Part shown: positions 1,419-42,066 of the stretch, one piece after another
Position numbering within the stretch: position 1 is the stretch's first letter
How the letters are laid out: each line of letters starts with the position of its first letter
Virus record (IMG/VR): IMGVR_UViG_2541047679_000006
Coordinates: 1 to 42,066 of that record
Source: a virus
Taxonomy: Duplodnaviria > Heunggongvirae > Uroviricota > Caudoviricetes
Strand: one strand, 5' to 3'
Length of the DNA: 42,066 bases
Translations under genes and position numbers: made by a program
The notes under the pieces: generated by a model
Databases searched by the model: none
Seen by the model: the letters and a program-made list of their open reading frames with translations, nothing else
What the model was told of the DNA's origin: nothing

Positions 1419-2489
1419 TTATTTGATTTCAATTTTGTCCCACTCCCTGCCTCTGTCATCACGATACTGTGATGCCATGGTGTCCGACTTATGCCCGAGA
1501 AGATGTTGAGCAAACTTATCGCTTATCTGCTTCTCATAGAGTCTTGCAGACAAACTGCGCAACTCGTGAAAGGTAGGCGGATCCCCTTCGAAGGAAAGAC
1601 CTGATGCTTTTCGTGCGCGCATAAAATACCTTGATACTGTGCCGGATGAAAGCGGTTCGCGACGAGTAGATGCAATTATGGTTTTTCCACCAAGAATCTC
1701 TTTGCATTTATCAAGTGTTTCCTTCATTGATATCCCGAGAGCATCAACATGCAATGCTGTTGGGATGGCAATTTTTACGCCTGTTTTGCTTTGCTCGACA
1801 TAAAGATATCCATCTACGATATCAGACCACTTCATTTCGCATAAATCCCCAACTCGCTGCCCGGTAACAACAGCCAGTTCCATTGCAAGTCTGAGCCAAC
1901 ATGGTGATGATTCTGCTGCTTGATAAATTTTCAGGTATTCGTCAGCCGTAAGTCTTGATCTCCTCACCTCTGATTTTGCTGCGCGAGTGGCAGCGACCGG
2001 GTTTGTTGTTATATGGCCTTCAGCTATTGCCTCTCGGAATGCATCGCTCAGTGTTGATCTGATTAACTTGGCTGATGCCGCCTTGCCCTCGTCTATGTAT
2101 CCATTGAGCATTGCCGCAATTTCTTTTGTGGTGATGTCTTCAAGTGGAACATCAGGTAGACCCCTCCTTATTGCTTTAATTTTGCTCATGTAATTTATGA
2201 GTGTTTTCTGCTTGATTCCTCTACTGGCGAGTATTTTTTCGTAGCGATCAAGCCATGAATGTAACGTAACAGAATTATCACTGTTGATTCTCGCTGTCAG
2301 AGGCTTGTGTTTGAGTCCTGAAAATAACTCAATGTTTGCCTGTATTGCTTCAGTAATTGCTATCCTCCTGTCTCTGCCTAATCCGAACTCTTTACCCGTC
2401 CTTGGGTCCCTGTAGCAGTAATATCCATTGTTTCTTATATAAAGGTTAGGGGGTAAATCCCGGCGCTCATGACTTCGCCTTCTTCCCAT
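1419..2489 (-). CDS. int: Integrase, tyrosine recombinase (lambda Int type)
   Basis: 356-aa translation MGRRRSHERRDLPPNLYIRNNGYYCYRDPRTGKEFGLGRDRRIAITEAIQANIELF… is essentially lambda Int; ATG verified at 2489-2487. Confidence 0.95.
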   Translation of the reverse strand: MGRRRSHERRDLPPNLYIRNNGYYCYRDPRTGKEFGLGRDRRIAITEAIQANIELFSGLKHKPLTARINSDNSVTLHSWLDRYEKILASRGIKQKTLINYMSKIKAIRRGLPDVPLEDITTKEIAAMLNGYIDEGKAASAKLIRSTLSDAFREAIAEGHITTNPVAATRAAKSEVRRSRLTADEYLKIYQAAESSPCWLRLAMELAVVTGQRVGDLCEMKWSDIVDGYLYVEQSKTGVKIAIPTALHVDALGISMKETLDKCKEILGGKTIIASTRREPLSSGTVSRYFMRARKASGLSFEGDPPTFHELRSLSARLYEKQISDKFAQHLLGHKSDTMASQYRDDRGREWDKIEIK

Positions 2490-10339: not shown

Positions 10340-10990
10340 TTAAGGAAGGTTTGCTAGCTTGGCATCAACGACAACGCCAATGATTTTACAGTTCCCATTG
10401 ATTTCAATCATTGGGTATTGTGGATTGAGTGGTTTCAGGAATTTTCTACCGGCATCAATAACTAACTTTTTGAATGTCGCCTCGTTTTCTCCTTCAAGTT
10501 TGGCGACTACCAGCTTTCCATTACGTGGTTCGACTTCTGGGTCGACGAGAATAATCATCCCCTCAGGAATACTCAGTCCTGCCGGGGCAGTCATTGAATC
10601 GCCTTTAACGTCGAGCCAAAAAGAGTCTTCAGAACAATCTACCGTTGTGTCGTACCAGTTATCTATTGCACGCCTATGATATGGCTCTACAGCTTCCATC
10701 CAACATCCTGCGCTTACCCAACTAATTAGAGGATACGAACCTCTTGGATCATGCCTGCTGTGATAGGCAATGTTTGAAAGACTATCCTCTCCTTTCAACA
10801 GGTAATCAGGGGAGCACTGCAAAGCCTTGGCTAAGGCCAATAGGTTTTCACCATTGGGCTCAGTTTCAGATCGCTCCCATTGGGAAATAGCAACATTAGA
10901 CACGCCAACCATCTTGCCAAGGGCAGCCTGCCTAATCTTGAGTTCTTTTCTGCGAGCGCGAATACGCTCACCCATCAGTTGTGTATTCAT
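10340..10990 (-). CDS. cI: CI-type prophage repressor (N-terminal HTH, C-terminal LexA/S24-like autopeptidase)
   Basis: 216-aa translation with HTH (…QAALGKMVGVSNVAISQWERSE…), an Ala-Gly site (SAG) and GDSM…KK Ser/Lys dyad motifs; divergent from cro across operator palindromes. Confidence 0.85.
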   Translation of the reverse strand: MNTQLMGERIRARRKELKIRQAALGKMVGVSNVAISQWERSETEPNGENLLALAKALQCSPDYLLKGEDSLSNIAYHSRHDPRGSYPLISWVSAGCWMEAVEPYHRRAIDNWYDTTVDCSEDSFWLDVKGDSMTAPAGLSIPEGMIILVDPEVEPRNGKLVVAKLEGENEATFKKLVIDAGRKFLKPLNPQYPMIEINGNCKIIGVVVDAKLANLP

Positions 10991-11862: not shown

Positions 11863-12679
11863 GTTAGCTGATTACAGGCCTCAACTGGAGGTCGTGGAGC
11901 ATCGCGTGGCAGAACTCGAAGATGGCTACACTCGGACTGCAAACACACTGTTAGAAGCCGCCATGCTTTCTGGACTTACTCTACATCAGTTACTGATTGT
12001 TATGGCTGTGTGGCGCAAGACATACGGTTACAACAAAAAAATAGATTGGATCGGAAACGAACAGTTCGCTGAACTCACTGGCATGGCACCAACCAAATGT
12101 TCTACCGCCAAAAACGAGCTTATCAGAATGGGAGTTCTCATTCAGGTGGGGCGTCAAGTTGGTATGAATACAAACATTTCAGAGTGGAAAACGAAAGTTA
12201 ACGGATTTGGTAAAACATTTACCAAATCGGTAAAACAAACCTTCACTAAATCGGTAAAAAGCAATTTACCGAATCAGTCAAACACAAAAGACAATATACA
12301 AAAGACAATAAATACAAATACCCCCTTACCCCCTAACGGGGGCGGCGATGGGCAGGTTAAACCTGAACGTCGCAAGGCAGAACGAATCGACTACGAATCC
12401 TTCCTGAACGCCTACAACGCCGAAGTCGGTGACAGACTGCCACACGCTGTTGCGGTCAACGAGAAACGCAAACGCCGCCTGAAGAAAATCATCCCGCAAC
12501 TGAAAACGCCAAATGTGGACGGTTTCAGAGCGTATGTCAGGGCGTTTGTGCATCAGGCCAAACCGTTTTACTTCGGAGACAACGACACGGGCTGGACGGC
12601 TGATTTTGATTACCTGCTGAGAGAAGACTCGTTAACGGGAGTTCGGGAAGGGAAGTTTGCAGACAGGGGGATTGCATGA
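11849..12679 (+). CDS. O: Replication initiator O-like protein (contains the origin iterons)
   Basis: N-terminus …[17 protein letters not shown]…KTYGYNK… parallels lambda O; internal repeated peptide ([18 protein letters not shown]) encoded by the iterons. Confidence 0.8.
12200..12325 (+). repeat. Putative replication origin inside O: palindromic iterons (…TTTACCAAATCGGTAAAA…, repeated) followed by an AT-rich tract
   Basis: Repeated/inverted GGTAAA-containing units at ~12203-12277, then an A-rich stretch; analogous to ori-lambda architecture. Confidence 0.5.
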
Positions 12680-17693: not shown

Positions 17694-17878
17694 ACGCCAC
17701 AATTCAAACGATACCAGAGCTTCTTATCCAGACACGAGGCAATCAGACCGAAGTGGCGAGGATGCTTTCCTGCGCAAGAGGAACAGTGCTCAAGTACAAC
17801 CGAGACAGCAAAGGTGAGCGTCACGTAATAGTTAACGGCGTCCTGATGGTCAAACAAGGCAAGAGGGGAAGACGATGA
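17690..17878 (+). CDS. ninH: NinH-like protein
   Basis: 62-aa translation (…IPELLIQTRGNQTEVARMLSCARGTVLKY…HVIVNGVLMV…) parallels lambda NinH. Confidence 0.7.
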   Translation: MNATIQTIPELLIQTRGNQTEVARMLSCARGTVLKYNRDSKGERHVIVNGVLMVKQGKRGRR

Positions 17879-18393
17879 GCATAAGAGAACTAAACCTCAC
17901 CAAAGAGCAGCACGAGTGGCTGAATGGCTGGCTTGAACTGTGGGGCGCATGGGTTTATTCAGGTCGTCTGGAAAAGCGCATGAGCAGCGTAATAGCGAAG
18001 TTCATGGAGAGCGTAGAGCCGGGAAGAGTTATGACAAGGCCAATGTGTAATGATGATGATGGAATGTTGATTTCTCAGGTCGTCGATTCCGTCATGTGCA
18101 TTGACAAGAAAGCCTTTGGAATCCTCCTCAGCTACTACGCTCATGGTTCATCTAAGCGAGCAATTGCATCCTACTATCACGCGACTGCAAAGCCACGCAA
18201 GATGTGTGGACGTGGTGGCGAGGGATGGAGAAAGCCTTCACTGGCAACCTGTAGAAACGAAATTGACGACATCCTGAAAGCGTCGTTATTTGTTTTGTAC
18301 CAACCAATGCAAAATGCTTTCAAAATGCGTAAACGTGTTGAGAAAGTTAAGCATGTTGCTGTTAAAAGCCTTGACATGCAATTAGCCATTTAG
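17875..18393 (+). CDS. Q: Late-gene antiterminator Q (phage 82/21-type family)
   Basis: 172-aa protein with LELWGAW and RPMCNDDDGMLIS motifs resembling 82-type Q proteins; last nin gene before the late promoter and lysis genes. Confidence 0.7.
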   Translation: MSIRELNLTKEQHEWLNGWLELWGAWVYSGRLEKRMSSVIAKFMESVEPGRVMTRPMCNDDDGMLISQVVDSVMCIDKKAFGILLSYYAHGSSKRAIASYYHATAKPRKMCGRGGEGWRKPSLATCRNEIDDILKASLFVLYQPMQNAFKMRKRVEKVKHVAVKSLDMQLAI

Positions 18394-20274: not shown

Positions 20275-20817
20275 ATGAATTATCCAACTATCGTTAACGG
20301 CATCGATTTCCGAGATCTGATTTTTGTGGCAAACAACGATCCGGTTACAGATTCTTTTATGGTGGCAAAAGCATTTGGAAAGCTGCCGAAGAACGTGGTT
20401 CGTGACATTGAACGAACCATAGAAGCTTGCCCTCCTGAGTTTGATACAAAGCTCAACTTTGAGCTTTGCTATAAAAACAATGAGTTACAGAATGGTAAGC
20501 CGCAAAAATTCTACCGTCTCCGCAAGGATGGGTTGATGCTTTTGGTTATGTCCTACACCAAAAAAGAAGCAATGCGTATCAAAATTGCTTACATCAACGC
20601 ATTCAACTGGATGTACGCCATGCTTCAGGTTGGTCATCGTCAATTTGAAGAAGAGAGAAATGCCGTAATGCTGGAGTACATGAAAGAGAAGGATGTTGCC
20701 AGCATGTCAGGCCGCCTGCTTAATCGCTGGGGAAAAATTAAGAAGCCTCAGCTACTGGCGAGAATTGAACGCCTTGAACAGCACGGGCAAACCGTAATCC
20801 CCGGACTCACCAATTAA
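20275..20817 (+). CDS. rha: Rha-family phage regulatory protein
   Basis: N-terminal motif …PVTDSFMVAKAFGKLPKNVVRDIERTI… and …DGLMLLVMSYTKKEAMRIKIAYINAF… fit the Rha family signature as I recall it. Confidence 0.6.
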   Translation: MNYPTIVNGIDFRDLIFVANNDPVTDSFMVAKAFGKLPKNVVRDIERTIEACPPEFDTKLNFELCYKNNELQNGKPQKFYRLRKDGLMLLVMSYTKKEAMRIKIAYINAFNWMYAMLQVGHRQFEEERNAVMLEYMKEKDVASMSGRLLNRWGKIKKPQLLARIERLEQHGQTVIPGLTN

Positions 20818-31689: not shown

Positions 31690-33075
31690 ATGGCTACTTG
31701 GCAACAAGGAATCAACTCAGGCGGTTTTCTTGCTGGTATCGGTGGGCAAAACTCAAATGCGCCAAAGGCAAGTGATGTAAGTGAGGCGTTGGCCTATATT
31801 CGCCAGAACAACGAAATGGAGCGTTCAGGTCGCAATAACATCGGCCTTCAGGCGTTGCAGGGACTTGGTAGTGTCGCTCAAACATATCAAGCCGCAAAGC
31901 AACAGGAAGTGGATGCTGCATTCCAAAAAGAATATGCGGCAGCCATCCAGTCAGGTGATCGACAGCAGGTGCGAGATCTGATGACCAAATATCCTGGTCA
32001 ATTAGAGAAGATTCAGTCTGGTATGAAATGGGCAGACGAAGACCAGCGTGATGAAATTGGCAATCTAGCGGCAGGCGGTCAAATTGCCTCCATGATGGGG
32101 GGTGATGCATTTAGCAAGTGGATTGGAAACAATGCAACCAGATTGTCTAATCAGGGGGTAGACCCACAACAACTCCTCAGCATGTATCAAAAAGACCCAC
32201 AAGCAACATCACAACTTATCGGACAATATGGTCAGTTTGCATTAGGCCACGAAAAGTATTGGGATTTACAGGACAAGATGGTTGGTCGCCAGCAGGAGCA
32301 GCAAAGAATTAACGAAACCATTCGCAATAATGACATGACGAATGCGAGGGCTATTAGGGGGCAAAACCTTTCCTATCAGTCTGCAATGACCGGACACGGA
32401 CTTGCAGCAGAAAGACTGGCACTTGATAAGCAGAAATTCGGTTTTGAAGTGCAACAGGCACAAAAAAAGGCCGAGGAACTTATTAATGCTGCGCCAAAAT
32501 TATCAGTGAACATGGAAAAGGCTATAGAAAAATCAGCAGGTGATGCGGCAGCTAGTCGTAATGCTGCCGATTCAATGACAACGCTCGCTGACACGCTGGA
32601 GAAGGAGAAGCCAACTCCTGGTTTGTTCGGTAACGCTGAAAATATGTTCTCTAAGCTTACGGGGCAAGATAACTACCTCCGAGATATGCGGATTAGATTC
32701 AACCAACTAGCCAATGCGCAGGCAACCAAGCTTCTCCCTCCCGGCCCTGCATCAGATAAGGATATTGAGTTTGCAAGGAAAGGCATTCCAAGCGAAACGG
32801 ATAATCCAATGGTCATGGCTCGATGGTTAAGGGGTATGGCAAAAATGGAAAGTAATAACGCGAAGTTCAACGAGTTTAGGTCAGAGTGGATGAGTGCAAA
32901 CGGCAGCCCAGGACAATCTGATCGCAACCGAAACATCATGGGGATGGATGTTAAGAAGGGTGAATCATTGAACTCTGCGGCAAAACGTTTTCTTTCCTCA
33001 AGTTATGGCGATAGCCAACCTCAACAGCAATTGTCCGATGACGAATTAATTAGCAAATATCTCGGAGGGCAGTAA
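31690..33075 (+). CDS. Ejection protein (P22 gp20-like)
   Basis: 461-aa ORF in the gp20 position. Confidence 0.6.
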   Translation: MATWQQGINSGGFLAGIGGQNSNAPKASDVSEALAYIRQNNEMERSGRNNIGLQALQGLGSVAQTYQAAKQQEVDAAFQKEYAAAIQSGDRQQVRDLMTKYPGQLEKIQSGMKWADEDQRDEIGNLAAGGQIASMMGGDAFSKWIGNNATRLSNQGVDPQQLLSMYQKDPQATSQLIGQYGQFALGHEKYWDLQDKMVGRQQEQQRINETIRNNDMTNARAIRGQNLSYQSAMTGHGLAAERLALDKQKFGFEVQQAQKKAEELINAAPKLSVNMEKAIEKSAGDAAASRNAADSMTTLADTLEKEKPTPGLFGNAENMFSKLTGQDNYLRDMRIRFNQLANAQATKLLPPGPASDKDIEFARKGIPSETDNPMVMARWLRGMAKMESNNAKFNEFRSEWMSANGSPGQSDRNRNIMGMDVKKGESLNSAAKRFLSSSYGDSQPQQQLSDDELISKYLGGQ

Positions 33076-34985
33076 TGGCCTATAGTCGTGAACAGTTGAT
33101 GACAGCATTAAGGAACGCTGATGCGGCAGGCGATACAGAAGGAGCGCGTCGCATTGCTCAGATTCTGTCCTCCAGTAATCAACCAACTCAAAACCAAAAG
33201 CAGCCTGTAGAACAGCAAGATGGATTTATGTCTGACCTCGGCGAAGCAGTAAAAGAAACTGGTCGCGGACTGGTGCAGGCTGGTGTAAATGTGGCAAATA
33301 TACCAGCATCAGTTGCCGATGCTGTAACAAGCGCGGCGGCATGGGCTGGCGGCAAACTCGGTATTGGTGATGGAACATATCAACCAGCGCCACGAGTAAC
33401 AACTCAGGGATTAGAGCAGGCGTTTGGACTTCAGCAAGGTGCTCTGACTCCACAAACGACAGAAGGTAGGGTGTTTGCGGAGGCATTGCCTTACCTGGCT
33501 ACTGTTGGCGTTGGCGGCGCTTCAACTCAGGCGCCAACACTTGCTGGTCGAATTACTCAAGGCGCAGCCCGTCTTCTGGCAGAAAACGCAGTCGGATCAC
33601 TCGCCGCAAACAGTGAGAAAAATGATGCGGGAAAACTGGCAACAGATATAGGTGTTGGCATGCTAACAGGTGGTGCTGTTAATACTGTTGCAAAAGGACT
33701 TGAGCGTGGAATAACTGCCTTTAAAGGTGATATTGCACCAGAAGTGGCGAAGAAAATTGCCATATCAGAATCGATGGGCGTGACACCAATGACATCTGAT
33801 GTTATCCCGCCGAAAAATGCTTTCACTCGCGGCCTTACTCAGGATGCCGAGGGGGCTTTGCTCGGGACAGGCTCAAAGCGAGCTGAGCAGTATGCAAAGA
33901 GAAGTCAGCTAGTTAAAAAACAGCTTGAGAAATATGGTGAATATAGTCCATCAGTTGTTGTTGATGATCTGTATGGTTCTCTGAAGTCAAGGAAGGATTC
34001 GGCCGGAAGCGTTATTGAAGACATTACAACCAAAATGGGAGACACACCTGTTGACACATCAAAATCTATTAAGGTTATCGACAACGTACTTACCAGAGCT
34101 AACAGGCTTGGGAAAGTGGCAAATAAGGATTTGATTCGCGGGTTATCCGATTTGCGAGAAGAACTTGCTAAACCAGATATAGATTTTGGTCTATTGAGAG
34201 AGTTGCGGTCAGCCTTGAGGGAAAGTATTCAGGGAGATGCCATGGTTTTTCCTAATAGCGCGAAAGCCGCAACTGATGCCGTGGAGAGGGCAATGGGGGC
34301 AGATTTGAGGAATAACGCAGCGCGGTATTTGGGGGCTGGAGAGGCCGCCAGATACGTCAAAGCAAACTCTGACTACTCCAACGTCTTCAATAAAGTTCTC
34401 AATAAAAGGATTGCGAATAATCTCAACAAAGCTAAAAAAGAGTTTACTCCAGAGCTAATAAACAGCGTTGTATTCAGCAGAAAACCATCAGATATTAAGA
34501 GGATATGGCCTGCTCTTAGTGAAGATGGAAAGAACGCTATGCGTGCTGCTTATATCAGCAAGATTGCAGAAAAAGCAGGAGACTCACCAACAAAATTTCT
34601 TACCGAGTTAAATAAGTTGAAGTCGCAATCTGACGGTCAGATCTATAACACGATATTCAGTGGGAGACACATGAAAGAGCTTGATGCTCTTCATGAAGTT
34701 CTACAGCAAACAGCAAGGTCGGACGCCGCAAATGTAGTAACACAGACAGGACAATCGCAAGCTAACAGGATTAGAACGATTGGCGCAACTGCGACTCTTG
34801 GGGCAACACTGGCGCTTGAAGCTGGTTTCGGTGCAATCATGCGCTTGTACGAGTCCAAAGCAGCAAGGAATGCGCTCTTACGTCTGGCAAACACTAAAGC
34901 TGGAACGCCAGCCTATGAAAGAGCGTTAAGTAACGCTGCAAATGCCATCAGGCCGCTGCTTGCCACTGAGGCAACACAGCAGTAA
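33075..34985 (+). CDS. Ejection protein (P22 gp16-like)
   Basis: 636-aa ORF in the gp16 position; ATG overlaps the upstream stop. Confidence 0.6.
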   Translation: MAYSREQLMTALRNADAAGDTEGARRIAQILSSSNQPTQNQKQPVEQQDGFMSDLGEAVKETGRGLVQAGVNVANIPASVADAVTSAAAWAGGKLGIGDGTYQPAPRVTTQGLEQAFGLQQGALTPQTTEGRVFAEALPYLATVGVGGASTQAPTLAGRITQGAARLLAENAVGSLAANSEKNDAGKLATDIGVGMLTGGAVNTVAKGLERGITAFKGDIAPEVAKKIAISESMGVTPMTSDVIPPKNAFTRGLTQDAEGALLGTGSKRAEQYAKRSQLVKKQLEKYGEYSPSVVVDDLYGSLKSRKDSAGSVIEDITTKMGDTPVDTSKSIKVIDNVLTRANRLGKVANKDLIRGLSDLREELAKPDIDFGLLRELRSALRESIQGDAMVFPNSAKAATDAVERAMGADLRNNAARYLGAGEAARYVKANSDYSNVFNKVLNKRIANNLNKAKKEFTPELINSVVFSRKPSDIKRIWPALSEDGKNAMRAAYISKIAEKAGDSPTKFLTELNKLKSQSDGQIYNTIFSGRHMKELDALHEVLQQTARSDAANVVTQTGQSQANRIRTIGATATLGATLALEAGFGAIMRLYESKAARNALLRLANTKAGTPAYERALSNAANAIRPLLATEATQQ

Positions 34986-35009: not shown

Positions 35010-35399
35010 CTAACATTTTCTTTTTACTTTTCCAACAAAAGCTTTGGTTGAATCCATATTTCCATAACCGGAAATGGTTTTTGACATTAAAACTGTTCCA
35101 GTAGGATGTATTACCCATGAGTCGATAACGCGTTGAGTTTCGCCATTCGCGCCGATTCCTATGATGGAGTTTTTAGACAATGCTTTGTAAGCCATGCCGC
35201 CCGCATCTGTCCCAGAATATGTGATGCTGGCATCTTCACCGTTTGTCTTAATGATGAATGTTCCACTAAAACCATCTTCTTCCGGATGGAAATTATTTCG
35301 TTCTGAATAGCTTATTCCGCGCATATCTCCAACGACCCAGCACTCTGCTGTAGCCCCAAAAGATATGAATAAGAACATAGCAGTAAGAAATTGCTTCAC
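35010..35399 (-). CDS. Hypothetical secreted/periplasmic protein (129 aa, N-terminal signal peptide), moron candidate in the immI-equivalent region
   Basis: N-terminus MKQFLTAMFLFISFGATA-E is a typical Sec signal; convergent with the ejection genes; AT-rich. Confidence 0.55.
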   Translation of the reverse strand: MKQFLTAMFLFISFGATAECWVVGDMRGISYSERNNFHPEEDGFSGTFIIKTNGEDASITYSGTDAGGMAYKALSKNSIIGIGANGETQRVIDSWVIHPTGTVLMSKTISGYGNMDSTKAFVGKVKRKC

Positions 35400-35562: not shown

Positions 35563-35773
35563 CAACATTGCATGAAACTTGCAGGAAATGTGACATTACC
35601 TTATAGGTAACTTCGGCGAAAATGCAGTAAATGTGAAACGTAATGATTTAAACGTGTCGAGAAAGTGGTTGTAAGTTAGCCTCTGAAGGATTGATGACAG
35701 CTTTGTTATGGTATTAAATGCAACTTGACACAGTTGTATACATAGCTGCGGCTATCAAGATGGAGGTATGTTT

Positions 35774-36217
35774 ATGCTCACTTGTTTTGATGTCGCCGAC
35801 TACTTCTTGGCGCATTGCGATGAAGAAAGTGGCGACATTATCTCTAACCTAAAAATTCAGAAGTTGACGTATTATGCCCAAGGGTTTTCTCTGGTTCTTC
35901 TGGGTAAGCCGCTATTTAATGAGAAAATTGAAGCCTGGATGCATGGGCCAGTAGTTCCTGAATTGTATCGTAAATATAGGGACTGTGGTAACGGAGCTTT
36001 ACCTGCGCCAGAAAACTTTGACGCTAAAAAATTCAGTGAAGATGAAATTGAATTGCTGGATGAGGTGTATAAAGTTTATGGTCAGTTTTCTGCCTGGAAA
36101 CTGCGCAATATGACTCACGAAGAGCAGCCATGGAAAGATGCTTACATTGAGGGTGCGGTTAGCCAAGAAATCACACTTGATTCTATGAAAGGTTTTTTCA
36201 AAACGTTAATTAACTGA
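35774..36217 (+). CDS. GepA/Panacea-like (DUF4065-like) phage-associated protein, candidate antitoxin-type component
   Basis: Translation (…DVADYFLAHCDEESGDIISNLKIQKLTYYAQGFSLVLLGKPLF…WMHGPVVPELY…) fits my recollection of the GepA/Panacea family; GGAGG RBS 6 nt before the ATG at 35774. Confidence 0.65.
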   Translation: MLTCFDVADYFLAHCDEESGDIISNLKIQKLTYYAQGFSLVLLGKPLFNEKIEAWMHGPVVPELYRKYRDCGNGALPAPENFDAKKFSEDEIELLDEVYKVYGQFSAWKLRNMTHEEQPWKDAYIEGAVSQEITLDSMKGFFKTLIN

Positions 36218-36222
36218 CGTGT

Positions 36223-36645
36223 ATGTCTAGAGTTAAGGGAAGAATAAAACAGAGGGATAAAGAGAGCTCTGCTACTGTTGGCCTCTCTATCCATCACGAA
36301 TCTCATGATGTAGAAAAAAGTCCGCCTGTATTTTCTCTTAGATACCTACAAAAGGGGTATTGCCTGGATTGCTGCCAAAAGCATGAAAAGGCAGCATTTG
36401 CAGATAGGCTGTTCAGGTTAAGTCAGATGTCATGGGATGAGATACGAAAATCTGATAAACACGGGCTTGGGACGGAAAAAATTGCCAGAAACGCGATAAA
36501 GGCTCCGATTCCTAAGCATGTTACTCAAGATGTGGATTTCATTGCGTTCAGATTTTGCTCTAAGGCACCTATGGTTGGTTATAAGATAGGAGCCACTTTT
36601 TATGTCTTATGGCTCGACAGGGAGTTCAAGCTATACAAGCACTAA
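36223..36645 (+). CDS. Hypothetical protein (140 aa) tightly linked downstream of the GepA-like gene, candidate partner/toxin
   Basis: ATG 5 nt after the upstream stop with no SD of its own, suggesting translational coupling; basic N-terminus and CxxCC motif; unrecognised. Confidence 0.5.
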   Translation: MSRVKGRIKQRDKESSATVGLSIHHESHDVEKSPPVFSLRYLQKGYCLDCCQKHEKAAFADRLFRLSQMSWDEIRKSDKHGLGTEKIARNAIKAPIPKHVTQDVDFIAFRFCSKAPMVGYKIGATFYVLWLDREFKLYKH

Positions 36646-36672
36646 TAAAACCCACCGTCAGGTGGGTTTTTT
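36645..36672. terminator. Bidirectional intrinsic terminator between the 140-aa gene and mnt (AAACCCACC-GTCA-GGTGGGTTT flanked by A/T runs)
   Basis: 9-bp perfect stem with T-run on the plus strand and A-run on the other side; overlaps the mnt stop. Confidence 0.6.
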
Positions 36673-36918
36673 GTACAAATCCTTCAGCGTATCAAACACC
36701 ATCTTCTTAACAAGATCTGACTGCTCATCAGCGAGTCGTTCTGCATCGTCACGATACCCGCTTACAGGTGATGGTTTGGAGAGTGATTCTTCCATCGTAG
36801 CCACAATTTCGGAATTGATAGACCTGTTATTCATTTTTGCACGCTGCTTAATCTTAGCGTGCAACTCGTGCGTAAGCCTCAAGTGGAACTGCGCCTCATC
36901 GTATTTGCTGTACATCAT
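36658..36918 (-). CDS. mnt: Mnt-like repressor (P22 immI ribbon-helix-helix family), without arc or ant
   Basis: C-terminal 86 aa (…AKMNNRSINSEIVATMEESLSKPSPVSGYRDDAERLADEQSDLVKKMVFDTLKDLYKKPT) closely match P22 Mnt as I recall it; ATG at 36918 with GGTGAGG RBS; the longer track ORF is an upstream read-through. Confidence 0.8.
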   Translation of the reverse strand: MMYSKYDEAQFHLRLTHELHAKIKQRAKMNNRSINSEIVATMEESLSKPSPVSGYRDDAERLADEQSDLVKKMVFDTLKDLYKKPT

Positions 36919-37050
36919 CAATGCCTCACCAAATGGGTGGAATGGCATCGTAAAACCTACTGTACAAATCAACAATCGTACCATTTCGGTATGTAACAAA
37001 TTCCAACCGTAGCCATGCTTCGGTGATTCCTTGTATCTGGAGCAAATTAA

Positions 37051-40350: not shown

Positions 40351-40827
40351 TTAACTAAACATCGCAGTAATCGAGGCACTCGCCAGAGAGTGAAAATGAA
40401 CGTTAAACCCGACCATCGCGCCGCTGGCACCTTCATCGACATCAATACGTTCTACATCCAGCGCGTGAACGGTAAAAATGTAGCGATGGGTTTCGCCTTT
40501 CGGCGGCGCTGCGCCATCGTACCCGGTTTTACCAAAGTCGGTACGCGTCTGCAAAACGCCGTCTGGCATAGCTACCAGACCAGAGCCAAACCCTTGCGGT
40601 AATACGCGGGTATCAGCGGGTAAATTAACAACTACCCAGTGCCACCAGCCGGAGCCGGTTGGCGCATCCGGGTCATAGCAGGTGACAACAAAACTTTTCG
40701 TTCCCACAGGAACATCATCCCACGCCAGATGCGGTGAAATATTATCGCCATCGTAACCCATGCCGTTAAAGACATGACGATGCGGCAGCTTATCGCCATC
40801 GCGCAGATCGTTACTGATGAGTTTCAT
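40351..40827 (-). CDS. ybhB: YbhB, PEBP/kinase-inhibitor-like family protein (host gene flanking attB on the bio side)
   Basis: 158-aa translation recognised as E. coli YbhB; immediately right of attR. Confidence 0.8.
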   Translation of the reverse strand: MKLISNDLRDGDKLPHRHVFNGMGYDGDNISPHLAWDDVPVGTKSFVVTCYDPDAPTGSGWWHWVVVNLPADTRVLPQGFGSGLVAMPDGVLQTRTDFGKTGYDGAAPPKGETHRYIFTVHALDVERIDVDEGASGAMVGFNVHFHSLASASITAMFS

Positions 40828-40935
40828 TAGAATGCCTCCGGGAAACCTCGGCCTTCAGACCGGGGAGGAAAGGAGGCGGTTTTCCGACTAACTGTACTTT
40901 GCATAATCACATTTTCCTCTTTAGTATGTGAACAC

Positions 40936-42066
40936 ATGAAACGCGCATATAAATACCGGTTTTACCCGACAACTGAGCAGGCTGAGCTTTTAGCTCAGAC
41001 GTTTGGCTGTGTGCGCTTCGTCTACAATTCCATCCTTCGTTGGCGTACCGATGCGTACTACGAGCGAAAAGAAAAGATCGGTTATCTACAGGCCAACGCT
41101 CGCCTTACGGCGCTCAAAAAAGAGCCTGAATACATATGGCTGAATGATGTTTCCTGCGTTCCCCTCCAGCAGTCGTTGCGCCACCAACAAGCCGCCTTTG
41201 CTAACTTCTTTGCCGGACGAGCTGCATATCCGGCTTTCAAAAGCAAACGGCACAAACAGGTGGCTGAGTTCACTGCCAGCGCGTTTAAACACCGTGACGG
41301 CGAGTTGTATATAGCAAAGAGCAAGTCGCCGCTGGATGTTCGCTGGAGTCGAGAATTACCATCTGCGCCGTCAACCGTTACCATTTCCAGAGATAGCGCT
41401 GGCAGGTACTTTGTTTCCTGCCTGTGTGAGTTTGAACCTGTATCAATGCCTGTTACCGCTAAAACGGTCGGCATTGATGTGGGCTTAAAAGATTTATTCG
41501 TCACCGATACCGGATTCAAAACCGACAATCCCCGCCACACCGCTAAATATGCGAAGCGATTAACGCTGCTACAGCGACGTTTAAGCAGGAAGCAAAAAGG
41601 CTCAAGAAACCGTATTAAAGCCCGCTTAAAGGTCGCCCGACTCCACGCGAAAATCGCCGATTGCCGGATGGACAATCTGCACAAGTTGTCCCGCAAACTG
41701 ATTAACGAAAACCAAGTTGTTTGCGTCGAATCCCTCAAGGTGAAAAACATGATCCGCAACCCGAAGCTGTCTAAAGCAATAGCTGACGCAGGCTGGAGCG
41801 AACTTGTTCGCCAGCTCCAGTACAAAGGCAAATGGGCCGGGCGGTCAGTGGTCGCCATTGACCAGTATTTACCGTCCTCAAAATGCTGTAGTTGCTGCGG
41901 TTTCACCATGCAAAAAATGCCTCTTAATGTTCGTAAATGGCACTGCCCTGAATGCGGCGCAGACCATGATCGCGACATTAACGCGGCACGTAATATTAAA
42001 GCTGCCGGGCTGGCAGTGTTAGCCCACGGAGAGCCTGTAAACCCTGAATCGCAGCACGCGGCTTAG
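40936..42066 (+). CDS. tnpB: IS200/IS605-family TnpB (OrfB) RNA-guided nuclease-type accessory protein, standalone (no tnpA in window)
   Basis: 376-aa translation with OrfB_IS605 features: N-terminal HTH-like region, RuvC-like core, C-terminal zinc finger (CCSCCG…CPECG); stop codon is the last triplet of the window. Confidence 0.85.
   Translation: MKRAYKYRFYPTTEQAELLAQTFGCVRFVYNSILRWRTDAYYERKEKIGYLQANARLTALKKEPEYIWLNDVSCVPLQQSLRHQQAAFANFFAGRAAYPAFKSKRHKQVAEFTASAFKHRDGELYIAKSKSPLDVRWSRELPSAPSTVTISRDSAGRYFVSCLCEFEPVSMPVTAKTVGIDVGLKDLFVTDTGFKTDNPRHTAKYAKRLTLLQRRLSRKQKGSRNRIKARLKVARLHAKIADCRMDNLHKLSRKLINENQVVCVESLKVKNMIRNPKLSKAIADAGWSELVRQLQYKGKWAGRSVVAIDQYLPSSKCCSCCGFTMQKMPLNVRKWHCPECGADHDRDINAARNIKAAGLAVLAHGEPVNPESQHAA

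Follow-up and report, generated by a model that had tools for sequence, protein, structure and literature searches.

We propose, as a reading that we judge about evenly poised between right and wrong, that the mnt gene lying next to the tailspike gene of a P22-like E. coli prophage forms with its operator a functional and self-regulating cassette, which corresponds to the left half of the immI region and does not repress a dedicated tailspike promoter. This prophage is found complete within the window, i.e. the whole stretch of DNA that was analysed (42,066 nucleotides). In this arrangement, the left half of immI (mnt, the Pmnt homologue and the predicted operator) is joined straight to the conserved leader of the tailspike gene, whereas Pant, arc, sar and ant are missing together with the ant terminator. 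The retention of mnt by many P22-like phages that lack ant has been a minor puzzle since the genomes of phage L and ST64T. The novelty of a mnt-only layout that was implied by the original prediction did not hold, as 'mnt-only ant morons' are described in the epsilon34 and phage L papers (PMC2629481, PMC8022706) and ST64T, ST104 and Para1 contain only mnt plus one unknown gene according to Villafane et al. (PMC2629481). The locus is thus another case of a described arrangement and no new kind of system. The useful addition made here is the pairing of Mnt alleles with operators, together with the selection acting on both an arc/ant-less mnt and its operator, which makes the old puzzle experimentally testable.

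The features on which the analysis relies are collected in Table 1. From gene 16, the order is 129-aa ORF, SocA pair, terminator, mnt and tailspike gene, and the 129-aa ORF occupies the position of sieA in P22. The two-gene SocA/Panacea pair (35768-36645, + strand) is probably a toxin-antitoxin or defence moron; an identical pair is present in a relative (L128). The terminator, which was missed by a simple terminator scan and was read from the sequence and its folding (+ strand: -15.8 kcal/mol, z -4.4; - strand: -15.4 kcal/mol, z -4.1), closes the rightward island operon as well as mnt, whose final codons (KKPT and stop) it overlaps. The 3' end of mnt and this terminator are also covered by a sub-threshold Rfam match to the Salmonella sRNA STnc420 (36640-36694, - strand, 26 bits versus a gathering score of 70, E 0.033), and STnc420 itself may derive from a prophage terminator of such kind. 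On the other side of mnt, the tailspike has the head-binding N-terminus of P22, but its receptor-binding body is different and it ends with an S74 chaperone. Beyond the tailspike gene, a YbcL-like ORF (40351-40827, - strand), named from its sequence, and an ORF resembling an IS200/IS605-type TnpB (40936-42066, + strand), which continues past the end of the window, probably mark the host flank of the prophage (40351-42066).

Table 1. Features of the prophage and of the mnt-tailspike region (positions in the window)
Feature	Position	Strand	Basis or remark
Integrase-like ORF	1419-2489	-	position alone
C2-type repressor	10340-10990	-	Pfam
Q-type antiterminator	17875-18393	+	Pfam
Rha-family regulatory protein	20275-20817	+	Pfam Phage_pRha and ORF11CD3 domains; late region
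Gene 16 homologue	33075-34985	+	ORF list
129-aa ORF, secreted-looking (signal-peptide-like N-terminus)	35010-35399	-	no family match
SocA/Panacea-domain antitoxin-like gene	35768-36217	+	Pfam, 2.2e-24
140-aa partner gene of the SocA-like gene	36223-36645	+	weak MAG6450-family match only
Bidirectional intrinsic terminator	36647-36672	both	AAAACCCACC-GTCA-GGTGGGTTTTTT
mnt, 86 aa (85 aa from the second ATG, 36915)	36658-36918	-	Pfam and structure matches
mnt Shine-Dalgarno, GAGG on the minus strand	36924-36927	-	read from sequence
Putative Pmnt -10, TACGAT on the minus strand	36947-36952	-	alignment; homologous to P22 TATCAT
Putative Pmnt -35, TTGTTG on the minus strand	36970-36975	-	alignment; homologous to P22 TTGAGA
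Predicted Mnt operator CGTACCATTTCGGTATG, 17 bp, core TACC-NTNTN-GGTA	36977-36993		comparative; presumed binding site
'Boundary sequence' with weak hairpin	37003-37030	+	upstream of the tailspike ribosome-binding site
Tailspike gene, 901 aa	37051-39756	+	Pfam Head_binding, 1.3e-66; Peptidase_S74, 1e-4

Mnt displays the two expected parts of the P22 repressor, an N-terminal ribbon-helix-helix (RHH) domain (Pfam Arc, PF03869, 1e-14, 54.5 bits versus a cut-off of 20.4) and a C-terminal coiled-coil tetramerisation domain (Pfam Repressor_Mnt, PF11423, 1.6e-17, 63.3 bits versus a cut-off of 20.9), and it matches the solved Mnt structures 1MNT (8.8e-26) and 1QEY (5.2e-12). The distance of 132 bp originally given between the starts of mnt and of the tailspike gene is correct from the first ATG of mnt. 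Homology with relatives indicates that the true start is probably the second ATG, which brings the spacer to 135 bp, as in VSe13, ST64T and SE1. At the mnt Shine-Dalgarno, an ATGCCT block is unchanged across 14 diverged representatives. The 'strong conservation' attributed to this homologue applies to its C-terminal domain, in which 28 of 31 residues are identical to P22 Mnt, but not to its N-terminal part, where identity is 47% (residues 7-55). Residues R2, H6, N8 and R10, which the mutagenesis of Knight and Sauer is said to have established as the base-contact positions of P22 Mnt, have Y, Q, H and R as their counterparts in the protein of the window, three of the four being different. The DNA-binding-domain (DBD) allele of the window is designated hereafter by its beta-strand, QFHLRL. 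Among relatives, a nearly invariant stretch formed by the first ∼45 residues is combined with five or more different C-terminal domains, which places the recombination in the inter-domain linker. Joints of this mosaic are seen around SKPSPVSGYRD (window and relatives L001, L006, L020 and L013). The gene is often difficult to recognize in databases: it is named 'partition protein ATPase' or 'putative chromosome segregation ATPase' in the records of P22 (NC_002371), ST64T, SE1, Sf101 and many other phages, an annotation error that hides it.

The presence of mnt without the genes that it controls in P22 was correctly predicted. In the 42-kb window, tblastn searches with P22 Arc and Ant, as well as with Ant, Rha and KilA of related phages, revealed neither arc nor ant, the sole match being mnt, and Rfam yielded no sar, with only sub-threshold terminator-like matches. 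The divergent control of a Pant-arc-ant operon, which is a trait of P22-type Mnt, is hence not found here, since both the genes and the rightward promoter are missing. Elsewhere in the window, the sole antirepressor-type candidate is the Rha-family gene, which has no Mnt-type operator nearby; a Rha-like gene is, we assume, usual in the late region of P22-like genomes.

The predicted operator is located at the position of P22 Omnt (AGGTCCACGGTGGACCT), one base beyond the -35 hexamer of Pmnt, and its assignment relies on the covariation between protein and site. The QFHLRL allele is accompanied by TACC.T.T.GGTA in 85 of 88 loci, the HFNFRM (P22-type) allele by GTCCAC.GTGGAC in 49 of 53 loci, and the QFNLRL allele by GACCAC.GTGGTC in all four; no cross match was observed, the exceptions are mostly single-base variants, and these loci were picked by protein similarity, not by operator. 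The P22 operator GTCCAC-N-GTGGAC is absent from the window and from all 88 QFHLRL loci, and the presumed specificity of QFHLRL Mnt hence departs from that of P22 Mnt as well as from that of the L/ST64T type. Variants with an improved symmetry are present in relatives (CATACCATTTTGGTATG, TACCGTTTCGGTA and GTACCGTTTAGGTAC). Across the 14 diverged representatives, the mean identity of the operator reaches 0.86 versus 0.63 at the 4-fold silent sites of the adjoining DBD and 0.46 in the sequence to its right; this last contrast is due in part to a recombination boundary and not to selection. The search for a symmetric site between 36919 and 37050 that was initially suggested gives a mixed answer. 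From the window alone no site stands out, as the best one of a de novo palindrome search is symmetric at 5 of 8 positions, the value most often reached by the best site of shuffled sequences and thus chance level; the operator is therefore identified only by comparison with other loci, and this comparison does reveal a conserved and allele-specific site. It is the only cognate operator of the window, and QFHLRL Mnt would most likely bind it as a tetramer. In all ∼160 loci with this allele, the operator adjoins the tailspike gene, or an HNH gene followed by the tailspike gene, and all Mnt-encoding loci among the operator-pattern matches listed are tailspike-adjacent. In about ten relatives (among them L024, L035, L062, L072, L078, L084, L088, L095 and L096), 410-730 bp separate the operator from the tailspike gene; the only such insert that was opened (L024, 2827-3369) contains a 180-aa gene in mnt orientation, read as an HNH-type endonuclease from the annotations of related records.

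Other occurrences of the operator pattern were set aside. TACC-N5-GGTA at position 12220 lies inside a coding region and has no link to the QFHLRL allele. The same pattern at 35597, in an intergenic region of the island, is not considered as a Mnt target because it is found in loci with a P22-type mnt or without mnt and is missing from 162 QFHLRL loci. The corresponding near-palindrome (ATTACCTTATAGGTAAC, 35594-35610), located between divergent genes of the island, accompanies the island module and is probably the site of another regulator. In viral contigs, 44 mnt-less matches to the operator 16-mer are found among those listed, and the total number of matches is near the chance expectation. 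One family with two promoter-proximal copies looked promising but corresponds to Firmicutes phages of the gut, of Oscillospiraceae and Ruminococcus types.

The mnt-tailspike spacer aligns base for base with the mnt-arc spacer of P22 up to the operator and then switches to the sequence that precedes gene 9 in P22; a few bases right of the operator 17-mer begins AAATTCCAACCGTAGCCATGC, which is homologous to the P22 boundary sequence. Promoters were scored on both strands with a simple sigma-70 position weight matrix (PWM), which recovers the mapped Pant (16.0 bits) and Pmnt (13.6 bits) of P22 as top matches. Leftward, the Pmnt homologue is the best minus-strand match in the window (8.5 bits, 17-bp spacer), a weak promoter by consensus (shuffle median 7.2 bits, 90th percentile 9.8), and it is the best or near-best site, with 8-11 bits, in the window and in arc/ant-less relatives. 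Its -10 hexamer has a mean pairwise identity of 0.93 and CAAT at the -35 is invariant in the 14 representatives, while the spacer between the two hexamers is only 15 bp in Sf101-type relatives. Rightward, the best score is 4.4 bits in the window and 4-7 bits in the mnt-tailspike spacers of all arc/ant-less loci, which is less than the shuffle median, and a promoter consensus scan of the spacer finds nothing on either strand. These low rightward scores and the blank consensus scan indicate that Pant has decayed and that no dedicated tailspike promoter is available to Mnt.

The simplest idea, in which a Pant-like promoter would survive, drive gene 9 and be shut by Mnt in the lysogen, is removed by this promoter analysis. 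The operator would extend from +3 to +19 in a Pant-type promoter, no terminator now stands between it and gene 9, and the hexamer at the old -35 position, ATGGCA, agrees with TTGACA in 4 of 6 bases. However, the old -10 position is occupied by CAAATC, no -10-like hexamer is conserved across relatives, and the best rightward match of the window is far below the score of P22 Pant, which makes a direct repression of the tailspike gene very improbable.

That the cassette is kept for a function is suggested by its pattern of variation. The pN/pS ratio of the DBD is ∼0.11 over 45 codons, with pS up to 0.97 and silent sites near saturation, which together with the conservation of the operator indicates that gene and site are both kept by selection. 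In the same vein, the 50 distinct DNA sequences of this domain encode only 16 protein variants, and the ORF is intact in nearly all of the ∼160 loci. Those observations, and the operator and promoter blocks being more conserved than silent sites, contradict the view that mnt is a non-functional remnant left over from an arc-ant deletion and drifting to loss. This possibility was raised for phage L (PMC8022706), and damaged copies do occur, such as that of Klebsiella phage phiKp_30, which lacks the beta-strand, or that of a Citrobacter locus (L014), which has a broken ORF and a mutated operator. We consider its probability as next to negligible for the gene described here.

In the self-regulating cassette that we favor, the loss of Pant would limit the cis effects of the operator to a feedback on Pmnt and to a road-block. 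P22 Mnt is known to favor Pmnt, and operator-bound Mnt of the window may act on its own promoter. The operator is located at about -37 to -53 from the putative Pmnt start and does not overlap the core promoter; a negative autoregulation is therefore not obvious. Recognition of short inverted repeats by a beta-sheet at the repressor's own promoter is shared with Arc and CopG, which are autoregulatory RHH repressors (PMC2724298), but their operators overlap the core promoter, whereas the site of the window is just upstream of the -35 and could influence Pmnt positively or negatively. In addition, Arc represses both Pant and Pmnt (PMC2724298). The second effect would be that bound Mnt blocks the sole DNA path by which a rightward RNA polymerase enters the tailspike gene, whether its read-through originates in the late operon or in the island expressed in the prophage. 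That Mnt and Arc might take part in late read-through into gene 9 has previously been suggested (PMC2629481). The suggestion that Mnt had been rewired to regulate the tailspike or itself thus survives in part: purifying selection and an allele-matched, conserved operator beside its own promoter make the control of its own expression plausible, but the repression of a tailspike promoter is not supported by the rightward scores. A repressor targeting only itself has no evident benefit, and a road-block on antiterminated late transcription is speculative.

Alternatively, the target of Mnt might be found in other phages. Mnt would then silence the ant promoter of incoming or co-resident P22-like phages with the same operator and shield the C2-type repressor, the cis operator being only autoregulatory. 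Repression of ant is the classical role of P22 Mnt, and antirepressors are able to cross-induce other prophages (PMC7380047). In addition, the conserved part of Mnt is precisely the domain that reads DNA, the C-terminal domain being freely swapped, and in the close relative L128, CGTACC half-sites are present in the promoter region of a nearby ant module. The survey of ant-carrying phages is against this trans-acting immunity. Among Ant-bearing viral loci, of which the best 80 of 456 were sampled, ant is never associated with QFHLRL or QFNLRL, the divergent RHH repressors being of the HFNFRM, TTVRIP or YSVRMP type, and TACC.T.T.GGTA does not precede arc/ant in these 80 loci, the sole cognate match being a tailspike-side site (L272). 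Moreover, no operator-bearing ant locus is present among the operator-pattern matches listed, in which mnt-less matches (e.g. those of Firmicutes phages) are at chance level, and arc/ant is never found beside the operator in the ∼160 QFHLRL loci. Finally, genetics cited in PMC8022706 indicate that phage L, which has a mnt-only region, is devoid of a functional immI. Since no sampled ant-carrying phage displays the QFHLRL allele or its operator, trans-immunity is unsupported and we regard it as unlikely.

The organization of L128 (7300-10000, on the same contig as L272) deserves a short description. An extra immI-like module is inserted there between the SocA pair and mnt; it contains two leftward RHH genes, an arc-like gene, an Ant 85% identical to that of P22 and a 270-aa gene, and a rightward promoter that looks strong (TTGACT-17-TACTAT) and carries ATGCGTACC as two direct repeats. 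Lying to the left of mnt, this ant module leaves intact the junction of mnt, operator and tailspike gene.

A further and quite unlikely possibility is that the tailspike-linked alleles (QFHLRL, and QFNLRL in L and ST64T) represent an old and separate Mnt lineage that would never control an antirepressor and would be selected for occupying a conserved operator, thereby gating polymerase read-through at the entrance of the tailspike gene, the DBD/operator pairs being distinct specificity types. If true, Mnt gating of read-through would set the tailspike dosage or silence the gene in lysogens. Besides, the three natural Mnt protein-operator pairs could inform on beta-sheet DNA recognition in RHH proteins.

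The proposed self-regulating cassette can be placed among known systems as follows. With P22 immI, it shares a two-domain Mnt, the position between genes 16 and 9, a homologous mnt leader with Pmnt, and a 17-bp operator at the same distance from the -35, but it differs by the lack of Pant, Oarc, arc, sar, ant and the ant terminator, by the changed contact residues, and by an operator of the TACC-N5-GGTA type instead of GTCCAC-N-GTGGAC. The mnt-only ant morons of L, ST64T, ST104 and SE1 have the same organization, with mnt as the sole immI gene, divergent from the tailspike gene at ∼135 bp, the same terminal boundary sequence and a decayed Pant. They retain a perfect palindromic operator and are distinguished from the window (QFHLRL) by the QFNLRL allele, its operator (AAGACCAC-N-GTGGTCTT) and other island genes. 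The mnt-only layout with another allele was found in ST64T, SE1, 720R6 and Gally (Lederbergvirus). The layout of the window is also that of the sequenced Lederbergvirus phages JEP4, VSe13, Sf101 and IME10, which have the QFHLRL DBD (80-100% identity over the N-terminal 55 aa), the operator and the adjacency to the tailspike gene. JEP4 and VSe13 nevertheless carry a different Mnt C-terminal domain, whereas Sf101 and IME10 have a shorter mnt-tailspike spacer and a Pmnt spacer that is 2 bp shorter. In the records of these four phages, mnt is called 'regulatory protein', 'Arc family DNA-binding protein' or 'chromosome segregation ATPase', or is left unannotated.

Several additional elements of the spacer were noticed. 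The boundary sequence, which is labelled 'bsq1; boundary sequence' in the CUS-3 record, exists in two copies (AAAATTCACCGTAGCCA) in P22 (L005, 5043-5070 and 5153-5205), one after the ant terminator and one before gene 9, with a hairpin-containing segment of 110 bp between them. As a candidate regulatory structure, its hairpin before the tailspike ribosome-binding site was set aside, being weak in the window (z -0.56, versus -3.3 in ST64T). A second hairpin, in the mnt leader (GATGCC...GGCATC), was similarly discarded: its outer arms are the -10 hexamer and the ribosome-binding region, and its inner stem is lost in Serratia-type relatives. Lastly, TACTGTACAAATCAACAATC (36958-36977) contains a perfect LexA left half-site, with CAA instead of CAG in the right half; this CTG-N10-CAA motif is shared by most relatives and overlaps with the Pmnt spacer, whose conservation (0.79) is unusually high.
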